This document shows, in pieces, positions 32,349 to 33,078 of a stretch of DNA of 64,000 nt. The notes under the pieces are model-generated. The model had not been told where the DNA came from and made no database searches. It saw only the letters and a list, made by a program, of their open reading frames with translations. Location: assembly GCA_021781965.1 (NCBI GenBank), contig JAJXVU010000003.1:15880-79879 (forward strand). The letters run 5' to 3'. Position numbers and translations under genes: made by a program. Within the stretch, counting starts at the first letter, position 1; every line of letters starts with the position of its first letter. This DNA is from Pseudomonadota bacterium (GTDB lineage Bacteria > Pseudomonadota > Gammaproteobacteria > UBA1113).

Positions 32349-32368
32349 CTCTTTAACATAGTAAAGAG
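32349..32368. promoter_or_regulatory. 7-6-7 palindrome ctctttaacatagtaaagag, candidate operator of the CI/LexA-like repressor
   Basis: Perfect inverted arms (CTCTTTA / TAAAGAG) lie 20 bp upstream of the repressor start codon. Confidence 0.3.
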
Positions 32369-32388
32369 ATCGTGTATACTTCCTGACT

Positions 32389-33078
32389 ATGGAAAAAGAA
32401 CTCATAGAAACAGACAACTCCGCAATACCGATCGCAGCTGCGCGCGCCAATCGGTTGCGGCGGCTACGGAATCTTGCAAATCTTTCACGTAAAGAGATTT
32501 GCCAGGATAGTGGTATCAACCTCAATACATTGATTGGTTGGGAAGTTGCACGCCATGGCGGGTTAACTCAACCGGGCGCACGGAAATTCTTAAGGCGAAT
32601 AATACTTGAAGGGATAATGTGCAGTGAAGAATGGCTTTTGCACGGTACGGGCATTGAACCTCATATCGTATCCAGTATTAGCCAATTCAATCCATTTACA
32701 AACCCAGGCGCTGACATACAGATCCAGCAAATCTTGTCAGAAATTGCACTATTTAAAAAACATCATCCTAATGCTGTGAGTATGATAATCAATGATGAAA
32801 GTATGGCGCCTTCGTTCAAAAAAGGTGATTTTATTTGTGGCGGCATTATTTCACGGGAAGATGTCAAAAACTATCTGGGAATGCCCTGTATAATATTAAC
32901 CGCTGATGGCAAGCAACTGTTTAGAAATATAACCCTCGGTGAAAAAGAAGGTACATTTTGTTTACTGGCAACAAATCTTGTGGCAGTTTCACAAGAGCCC
33001 TTAATCTTGCAGGATATCACTCCTATATATATTGCTCCCGTTATTTGGCATAGGAAATTGTTAAAGTCTAATCCGTAA
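32389..33078 (+). CDS. CI/LexA-like repressor: N-terminal XRE-type HTH + C-terminal S24 peptidase domain
   Basis: HTH LRNLANLSRKEICQDSGINLNTLIGWE. The C-terminal domain carries INDESMAPSFKKGDFICG (Ser nucleophile block G[DE]SMxP...GD) and a downstream K-Q-L (Lys general base), as in LexA and lambda CI. Confidence 0.65.
   Translation: MEKELIETDNSAIPIAAARANRLRRLRNLANLSRKEICQDSGINLNTLIGWEVARHGGLTQPGARKFLRRIILEGIMCSEEWLLHGTGIEPHIVSSISQFNPFTNPGADIQIQQILSEIALFKKHHPNAVSMIINDESMAPSFKKGDFICGGIISREDVKNYLGMPCIILTADGKQLFRNITLGEKEGTFCLLATNLVAVSQEPLILQDITPIYIAPVIWHRKLLKSNP

Follow-up and report, generated by a model that had tools for sequence, protein, structure and literature searches.

The regulator locus

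The 64,000-nucleotide (nt) stretch of DNA analysed here, referred to below as the window, comes from a gammaproteobacterium of the UBA1113 lineage (GenBank assembly GCA_021781965.1, contig JAJXVU010000003.1, positions 15,880 to 79,879). It carries a cassette of five co-directional, tightly packed genes encoding, in this order, a regulator of 229 amino acids (aa), a solute-binding protein, a hybrid histidine kinase, a protein of 82 aa and an LqsR-family response regulator (Table 1). A sequence-only reading of the locus had described the regulator as a self-cleaving repressor of the CI/LexA type with a palindromic operator in its own promoter, which might place the adjacent phosphorelay under the control of DNA damage. 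The comparison with relatives suggests something different. On balance, the regulator probably acts as DNA-binding partner to the LqsR-type phosphorelay, and it is contact with other proteins, rather than self-cleavage, that would control it. The computed evidence consists of the fold of the protein, the loss of its catalytic pair, gene linkage, natural fusions, and the co-variation of an operator sequence with residue 49 of the regulator.

The genes downstream of the regulator supply the other parts of this system. The binding-protein gene, which is conserved in the cassettes at loci L033 and L035 (homologous loci are denoted by L numbers), encodes the probable ligand receptor for the kinase, the start of which abuts the binding-protein stop codon. 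At L001 (JBIPMB010000223.1), where the regulator is 93% identical to that of the window, the kinase gene follows the regulator directly after a 22-nt gap, with no gene for a binding protein between them, which makes the latter a variable accessory of the cassette. The 82-aa protein, which matches no Pfam or NCBIfam model, is read as a phosphotransfer module consisting of a stand-alone dimerisation/His-phosphotransfer (DHp) domain of the kinase type. The response regulator aligns over its full length with PDB entry 6sy9 (E 7.2e-34), taken from its chain length, tag offset and D108 to be tagged Legionella pneumophila LqsR, and Asp113 (numbered on a longer open reading frame, ORF) is aligned with the acceptor aspartate of that chain. 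It has no DNA-binding domain.

Table 1. Features at and around the regulator gene, with positions counted from the first nucleotide of the window (nt, nucleotides; bp, base pairs; aa, amino acids; HTH, helix-turn-helix)
Feature	Position	Strand	Details
ORF of 160 aa	31437-31919	-	divergent from the regulator gene
Perfect 17-1-17 palindrome	32112..32146		AATATTATTTAATATGA-T-TCATATTAAATAATATT
19-bp operator candidate	32120-32138		TTAATATG-ATT-CATATTAA; 269 nt upstream of the regulator ATG
Minus-strand promoter-like site		-	TTGACA-18-TAATAT at 32161..32132, with TAATAT at 32137..32132; overlaps 32120-32138
Small palindrome	32149..32164		CTATTGA-TG-TCAATAG; carries TGTCAA, which is TTGACA on the minus strand; conserved in orthologs
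7-6-7 palindrome	32349-32368		CTCTTTA-ACATAG-TAAAGAG; ends 20 nt before the regulator ATG
Promoter-like site	32353..32380	+	-35 TTAACA at 32353-32358, 16-nt spacer, -10 TATACT at 32375-32380
Regulator ORF	32389..33078	+	229 aa; first gene of the cassette
Regulator, XRE HTH	residues ~19-90		recognition-helix Ile49, codon 32533-32535
Regulator, linker followed by conserved helix	residues 106-125		E118 and F122
Regulator, LexA/CI-fold beta domain	residues ~126-225		Ser138 at 32800-32802; Arg179 at 32923-32925
Secreted SBP_bac_5-like solute-binding protein	33097..34548	+	Pfam SBP_bac_5, E 3.8e-11; 18 nt after the regulator stop
Membrane hybrid histidine kinase	34549..36714	+	H-box QIAHDIRSPLAAL, HATPase_c, C-terminal receiver-like domain(s)
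82-aa H-box protein	36730..36978	+	KFKHVVKTPLSTI
Two tandem ~126-nt hairpin units	36979..37253	+	between the 82-aa gene and the response-regulator gene
LqsR-family response regulator	37254..38177	+	307 aa; receiver and LqsR-type C-terminal domain; Pfam Response_reg

Fold and family of the regulator

Foldseek agreed on a CI/LexA-type fold for the regulator. A five-helix HTH DNA-binding domain of the XRE/Cro-CI type is followed by a C-terminal domain with the LexA/signal-peptidase fold, in keeping with the CI/LexA type that the sequence-only reading had proposed. The relationship to LexA and CI is visible at the level of the fold only. Pfam HTH_3 scored a sub-threshold 17 bits, and Peptidase_S24 (PF00717) reached 13.0 bits against a gathering cut-off of 23.3 (E 0.086). 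No NCBIfam model matched the protein, PHROGs gave only a weak match to phrog_4 (E 5e-5), and searches of PDB sequences, both with the regulator protein and with a profile of its family, returned no LexA or CI match.

An initial search for relatives yielded 58 proteins, 205-295 aa in length, whose sources are Legionella, Tatlockia and metagenome bins of other Legionellales. A profile search against 1.84 billion cluster representatives extended the family to 2192 representatives at E<1e-3, with 743 at E<1e-30. The closest relatives considered here share 93% (L001), 89% (L033 and L034) and 69% (L035 and L036) identity with the window protein. Where database names are given to family members, they are limited to 'hypothetical protein' or 'HTH domain-containing'. 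Judged by these searches, the regulator belongs to a large unnamed family of putative transcription factors centred on the Legionellales.

The catalytic positions of the S24-like domain

Residues were mapped onto the S24 family by hhalign profile-profile alignment against LexA, CI and UmuD, the LexA sequence being identical to that of PDB 7b5g. The D-D/E-x-M-x-P..G-D pattern of the regulator is in register with the G-D-S-M-x-P..G-D of the S24 proteins, so that S138, within DESMAP, is paired with LexA S119. The block DESMAP..KKGD, earlier picked out as the serine block, does therefore align with its S24 counterpart. The lysine proposed alongside it, in K-Q-L, proved to be misaligned: this residue, K175, is variable in the family and lies four residues before R179 (in LFRNI), and it is R179 that stands opposite LexA K156.

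All 49 aligned relatives have an arginine at position 179, as do 196 of 200 in a larger set, and the window protein conforms. Position 138 is far less constrained, with Gly in 90 of the 200 relatives, Ser in 48, Ala in 45, Thr in 7 and Cys in 3, which leaves 76% of them with a residue other than serine at the place of the nucleophile. As the position varies between Gly, Ser and Ala, it is not, it would appear, under catalytic constraint. Neither an Ala-Gly nor a Cys-Gly dipeptide occurs in residues 86-120 of the window protein, and none is conserved across the family. The residues that are conserved instead are D136, M139, P141, D147, G151 and R179, together with E118 and F122.

LexA-like self-cleavage is defined by a Ser-Lys pair and an Ala-Gly bond (PMC12273997). 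Because the Lys and Ala-Gly features fail and the Ser is not conserved, the regulator is judged from these alignments not to be a self-cleaving S24 repressor; its catalytic pair appears to have been lost. The same features speak against the autoproteolytic activity attributed to it earlier. In the window protein itself, a check of the catalytic residues on the S24 alignment finds Ser138 present and the lysine replaced by Arg179. The dead-protease domain would now serve oligomerisation or partner binding, a role that shares the somewhat better than even standing of the explanation to which it belongs.

A repressor of the LexA, CI, IrvR or PrlP-like kind, cleaving itself upon stimulation by RecA or stress and acting at the 7-6-7 palindrome to put the phosphorelay under the control of DNA damage, is barely tenable in view of these replacements at the Lys and Ser positions and the missing Ala-Gly bond. 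It could draw on the CI/LexA fold, on the serine that the window protein does have at the nucleophile position within DESMAP..GD, on the location of the palindrome over the promoter, and on the precedent of chromosomal, non-prophage regulators of the same architecture that do cleave themselves (PMC7101444; PMC12273997). Against it also stand the sub-threshold Pfam S24 score and a palindrome that is imperfect in orthologs and statistically ordinary, as described below. Nothing was found that supports control of the relay by DNA damage; gene linkage and natural fusions suggest that the regulator is instead a component or output of the relay.

With LexA, lambda CI and UmuD (MEROPS S24) the regulator thus shares the arrangement of DNA-binding domain, linker and beta domain of the LexA/signal-peptidase fold. 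It differs from them in the invariant arginine in place of lysine, the non-conserved serine and the lack of Ala-Gly, in the conserved helix that occupies the region of the cleavage site, and in its setting, which is linked to a phosphorelay and lies outside any prophage or SOS context. IrvR of Streptococcus mutans and PrlP of Streptococcus suis also have an XRE HTH and an S24-like domain, and they are likewise non-prophage chromosomal proteins, acting as non-SOS stress regulators of adaptive genes (PMC7101444; PMC12273997). Both nevertheless self-cleave, PrlP at Ala155-Gly156 by means of a Ser-Lys pair, and the regulator family is without these features. SipA of Streptococcus pyogenes (PDB 4n31) is an inactive signal-peptidase homologue but, unlike the regulator, it functions in pilus assembly and lacks a DNA-binding domain.

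Linkage to the phosphorelay

The association of the regulator with the adjacent phosphorelay, already proposed from the window alone, extends across the family. It was counted at the 24 genome loci in which the sequence continues for 1.5 kb or more downstream. A full-length LqsR-like gene lies within 5.3 kb of the regulator gene at 18 of them, and at 14 loci the two are directly adjacent, in both co-directional and convergent arrangements. Where the two genes run in the same direction, a small H-box ORF often separates them; such ORFs are found between the regulator and response-regulator genes at L005, L020, L022, L024 and L038, and on the L. pneumophila plasmid pLELO.

In three cases the regulator is fused to a DHp domain of ~65 aa with an H-box (L029, L045 with protein P0060, and L046 with protein P0016). 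The fused tails are predicted to be helical and align with the DHp domain of the window kinase, and an LqsR-like gene follows each fusion after 4-10 nt. The three fusion proteins are 54-69% identical to one another, and this divergence makes an assembly artefact unlikely. A further candidate, P0136, in which a family member is joined to a Cu-oxidase_4 protein, was set aside as a probable case of two genes run together in gene calling.

The likely promoter and its palindrome

The palindrome proposed earlier as the operator of the regulator has the sequence and location that were given for it (Table 1). Its standing as an operator is another matter. The window contains 90 perfect inverted repeats whose arms are 7 nt long and whose spacers measure 0-10 nt (1.4 per kb), and an inverted repeat with 7-nt arms is present in 7.4% of shuffled 60-nt segments upstream of the ATG; on both counts the palindrome is no more than chance would provide. 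A search of the window for CTCTTTA-N6-TAAAGAG found no further copy, whether exact or with one or two mismatches. The orthologs at L001, L033 and L035 have arms of the form CTATTTA...TAAAAA(A/T), in which 5 of 7 arm positions are matched, and the repeat is perfect only in the window genome. The palindrome is thus not conserved as such, and it overlaps the -35 hexamer and the spacer of a promoter-like site.

It is this promoter-like site that is conserved. It scores 10/12 against the consensus, the ATG follows 8 nt after the -10 hexamer, and both hexamers are invariant in four orthologs, in which the 8 nt preceding the ATG vary. As those 8 nt also hold no Shine-Dalgarno sequence, the regulator mRNA may be leaderless or nearly so. 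In the left part of the palindrome, TTAACAT(A/G) corresponds to one half-site of the Ile-type operator described below, and in L035 this half-site is exact (TTAACATG). Speculatively, the region may be a weak auxiliary site for autoregulation, possibly in cooperation with the distal operator.

A distal operator candidate

A better candidate than the 7-6-7 palindrome lies further upstream. The perfect palindrome at 32112-32146 is one of three inverted repeats in the window with arms of at least 12 nt. The other two perfect repeats of this class are at window positions 9468 and 27647, the latter at the 3' end of a pmbA-like gene, where it may be a terminator. To judge from its conservation and its counterparts at other loci, the palindrome at 32112-32146 may hold the family-type operator of the regulator.

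The core of this candidate, TTAATATG-N3-CATATTAA, is kept in all four orthologs, including that in the relocated L035 cassette. The same 8-3-8 layout recurs 20-130 nt upstream of distant family genes, as TTAATCCGATACGGATTAA at L026, TTAATCCGAATCGGATTAA at L031, TTAACATGATTCATATTAA at L025 and TTAATATGATTTATGTTAA at L039, the last of these at a locus added to the initial set later. A scan for AATCCG..CGGATT that allowed 3 mismatches and variable spacing was too permissive, and was replaced by scans for the fixed 8-3-8 layout with controls. The strict 8-3-8 motif has 8 matches in 10.3 kb of upstream zones as against 4 in 426 kb elsewhere, an enrichment of ~80-fold, and it is individually significant at 10 of 32 loci.

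The main reason for assigning the distal site to the regulator is that its core triplet co-varies with residue 49 in the recognition helix. Regulators with T-L-I-G-W-E (Ile49), among them the window protein, have operators with ATG/CAT cores, whereas those with T-x-K-G-W-E (Lys49) have CCG/CGG cores. When the proteins are collapsed to lineages at 60% identity, the Ile-type site is found in 7 of 8 Ile49 lineages and in 2 of 18 Lys49 lineages (Fisher p = 4e-4). The window itself has one match to the Ile-type operator and no occurrence of the Lys49-type (TTAATCCG...).

Close to the operator, at a distance of a few nt, a (T)GTCAA(C/T) element that is often palindromic (ATTGA..TCAAT) occurs in the window and at L002, L014-L017, L021, L026 and L039. 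The element is not oriented in the same way towards the regulator gene in the clade of the window as in the others, and it could serve either as a -35 element or as a second binding site.

The location of the operator candidate leaves room for another protein to bind there, such as a PmrA-like regulator or the GerE-type regulator of L035. PmrA half-sites are of the TTAATAT type. Support for such a binder comes from the distance to the regulator ATG, from the overlap with the minus-strand promoter-like site and from the GerE-type regulator gene that lies nearby in L035 and L040. It is very improbable all the same, as the site travels with the regulator gene through very different contexts and its core triplet follows residue 49 of that regulator; the inverted 8-3-8 symmetry, moreover, would fit a symmetric HTH dimer and not the tandem binding of OmpR-type proteins. 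The putative target of the full site at 32120-32138 differs between genomes: it is the 160-aa hypothetical ORF in the window and the GerE-type gene in L035, and there is none in L001.

The 160-aa ORF has no match in Pfam, NCBIfam or PHROGs. It is found in the window and at L033 and is absent from L001 and L035, for which reason it is regarded as an insertion or deletion outside the cassette.

Surroundings of the cassette

The genes flanking the cassette, identified from the syntenic ortholog locus L033, have housekeeping functions, pmbA, pyrC and rnt being found before the cassette and ahpC, grx and sodB after it. No phage genes, integrase, cro or structural genes are present in the flanks around the regulator, so that the earlier statement that this is not a prophage holds. 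The G+C content is 0.34-0.37 across the cassette (window positions 31000-38000) as against 0.41-0.45 on both sides, which is consistent with horizontal acquisition, and the five-gene cassette is found intact at a different chromosomal site in L035. Low G+C content, housekeeping flanks and the relocation in L035 together support its description as an island and not a prophage.

The two ~126-nt units that separate the 82-aa gene from the response-regulator gene are 87% identical and richer in G+C. Each folds into a long hairpin of -43 kcal/mol (z -3.1), and the positions at which the two copies differ leave pairing in the apical stem intact. The duplication was shown by exact search and alignment, and was missed by Tandem Repeats Finder. 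The insertion is absent from L033, where the gap is 20 nt, and from the rest of the window, and it lies outside the regulatory system. A scan of 31000-38500 against Rfam gave nothing relevant. The response regulator probably starts at 37254, where AAGGAG precedes the ATG by 6 nt; this start is favoured because the alternative ATG at 37227, which opens the longer ORF, lies inside repeat copy 2. The L033 ortholog is 307 aa long.

Relatives on plasmids

A homologous cassette is carried by the conjugative plasmid pLELO (NC_018141.1; L041 and L043, 142912-148852). It comprises genes for a regulator, an alpha/beta hydrolase, a binding protein, a kinase, a 75-aa H-box protein and an LqsR-like regulator. 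Its regulator (WP_014845160.1) has DDGM and FVRIL at the mapped positions, and thus neither the Ser nor the Lys. L. longbeachae, L. sainthelensi and L. anisa have near-identical plasmids of ~150 kb with the cassette. The literature notes a 'second lqsR homologue' on a plasmid, with no mention of a CI-like regulator (PMC8023197), and the pLELO cassette is probably the locus concerned. On plasmid 4 of Aquicella lusitana (NZ_LR699117.1, L042), a family member is followed by a thioesterase and an autoinducer-binding-domain protein in place of the phosphorelay; these neighbours hint at a link to small-molecule signalling.

The pLELO homologue adjoins a divergent RepA-like gene, lvrA/B-like genes, csrA (lvrC) and F-type tra genes. 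This arrangement, seen also on the ~150-kb plasmids, raises the question of whether the regulator is of the LvrR/PrpA type, that is, a 'phage-repressor-like' regulator of a mobile element which, beside lvrABC and type IV secretion genes, controls excision or conjugation. LvrR has been described with LexA-like domains (PMC3864950; PMC3218107), and both this type and the present family are Legionella-specific proteins of CI/LexA-like character, the pLELO homologue occupying the place beside the lvrABC-like and tra genes. The lower G+C content of the cassette and its movement between chromosomal sites could be taken in the same sense. An identity of this kind is nonetheless clearly improbable. 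There are no lvr, tra, integrase or replication genes near the window copy, and the name LvrR is given to no family member in the sources consulted. On plasmid LPE509, the candidate LvrR is an XRE/S24-like gene in the corresponding place; it is only marginally related to the family (hhalign probability 23%, E 9e-4) and was missed by tblastn.

A proposed mechanism and its main rival

The properties of the cassette suggest the following scheme, in which the regulator serves the relay as DNA-binding partner. The binding protein, together with the kinase, would sense an external ligand, and phosphate would pass from the kinase His to the Asp of the kinase receiver, then to His10 of the small protein and finally to Asp113 of the LqsR-like regulator. 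The state of phosphorylation would reach the regulator by contact with the phosphotransfer protein, the response regulator or both, and not by RecA-stimulated cleavage. A dimer of the regulator would bind TTAATATG-ATT-CATATTAA (32120-32138), with Ile49 reading the ATG/CAT core. Binding is predicted to be tight at TTAATATGATTCATATTAA and weak or cooperative at the promoter half-site; by way of that weaker half-site, TTAACAT at its own -35, the regulator may feed back on the whole operon.

Several observations weigh against this scheme. A physical contact between the regulator and either of its two proposed partners, the phosphotransfer protein and the response regulator, is something that we infer, as are the order of phosphotransfer and the sign of regulation. 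The linkage is incomplete, in that 6 of the 24 loci have no LqsR-like neighbour and L040 has none either, and to our knowledge the canonical lqsA-lqsR-lqsS cluster has not been reported with such a CI-like regulator. At the protein level, the window copy retains Ser138, and the hhalign probability behind the residue mapping is low (12%), the mapping resting on motif register and fold match. As regards the DNA, 269 nt separate the distal operator candidate from the ATG, and the promoter-like site that it overlaps is that of the minus strand, not the regulator's own promoter. The reciprocal half of the co-variation, with the Lys-type site in 0 of 8 Ile49 and 6 of 18 Lys49 lineages, is not significant alone (p = 0.13).

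The main rival explanation is that the regulator is a local regulator of the neighbouring signalling genes, its dead-protease domain being purely a dimerisation or small-ligand module that receives no input from the relay. This is rather unlikely, though it accounts for several features of the family. Palindromes lie directly upstream of regulator genes, as autoregulation predicts, the regulator is the first gene of the operon in the window, and certain loci have no LqsR-like neighbour. The C-terminal domains of CI proteins are, moreover, known as oligomerisation modules. What it does not readily explain are the three diverged fusions of regulator and DHp, which are hard to understand without a physical role in the relay. 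In addition, adjacency is kept where the regulator and response-regulator genes are convergent and hence not co-transcribed, and the response regulator that would be its partner itself lacks a domain for binding DNA.

Relation to LqsR, PhcX and other relays

The mechanism of output of LqsR in L. pneumophila and of PhcX in Ralstonia has been stated to be unknown (PMC10653808; PMC3376566). No DNA-binding domain is recognised in proteins of the LqsR family (PMC10653808; PMC3376566). The cassette protein resembles LqsR in having a receiver and a C-terminal domain with no known output (PMC3376566; PMC10653808). The gene context differs. Canonical lqsR is found with lqsA and lqsS, whereas here the neighbours are a binding protein, a hybrid kinase, a phosphotransfer protein and a CI-like regulator; at the syntenic locus L033 no LqsA-type gene occurs within 8 kb, and no LqsA/LqsS clustering was found.

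The Spo0F-Spo0B-Spo0A and LuxU-LuxO relays (for LuxU/LuxO, see PMC3376566) likewise comprise a kinase, a small His-transfer protein and a terminal response regulator, the kinase being a hybrid one here. In contrast to those relays, the terminal regulator of the cassette cannot bind DNA, and DNA binding appears to be supplied by a separate CI-like protein, which in some cases is fused to the transfer domain. An output that works through contact between proteins would be reminiscent of the partner switching of PhyR and NepR.

Implications for LqsR-family signalling

The fold and domain layout of the regulator are already known. As far as literature and databases show, what appears to be new is a large family with a lost catalytic pair, its coupling, by genetics and by fusion, to a His-phosphotransfer protein and an LqsR-family regulator, and a predicted operator with a predicted specificity residue. 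With more than 700 sequence clusters of the LexA/CI fold having apparently given up self-cleavage, caution is advisable in annotating 'HTH + S24' proteins as SOS switches by default.

A wider proposal can be advanced tentatively, as a possibility that falls short of an even chance. The CI-like dead-protease family may be the missing DNA-binding output of LqsR-family regulators, in which case the phosphorylated LqsR-like protein and the His-phosphotransfer protein would attach to the regulator and so act as a switch for its binding to operators of 19 bp with the pattern TTAAT-N9-ATTAA. If so, the system would be a 'split' response regulator, the receiver and DNA-binding parts of which are separate polypeptides. 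The hypothesis is testable, with named components, a predicted operator and a residue 49 predicted to set specificity, and a culturable pathogen carries a copy on L. pneumophila plasmid pLELO. In Legionella and Ralstonia, LqsR and PhcX govern virulence, motility, competence and biofilm traits and, were the proposal true, the module on plasmids of the pLELO type would link plasmid functions in L. pneumophila to a signal from outside.

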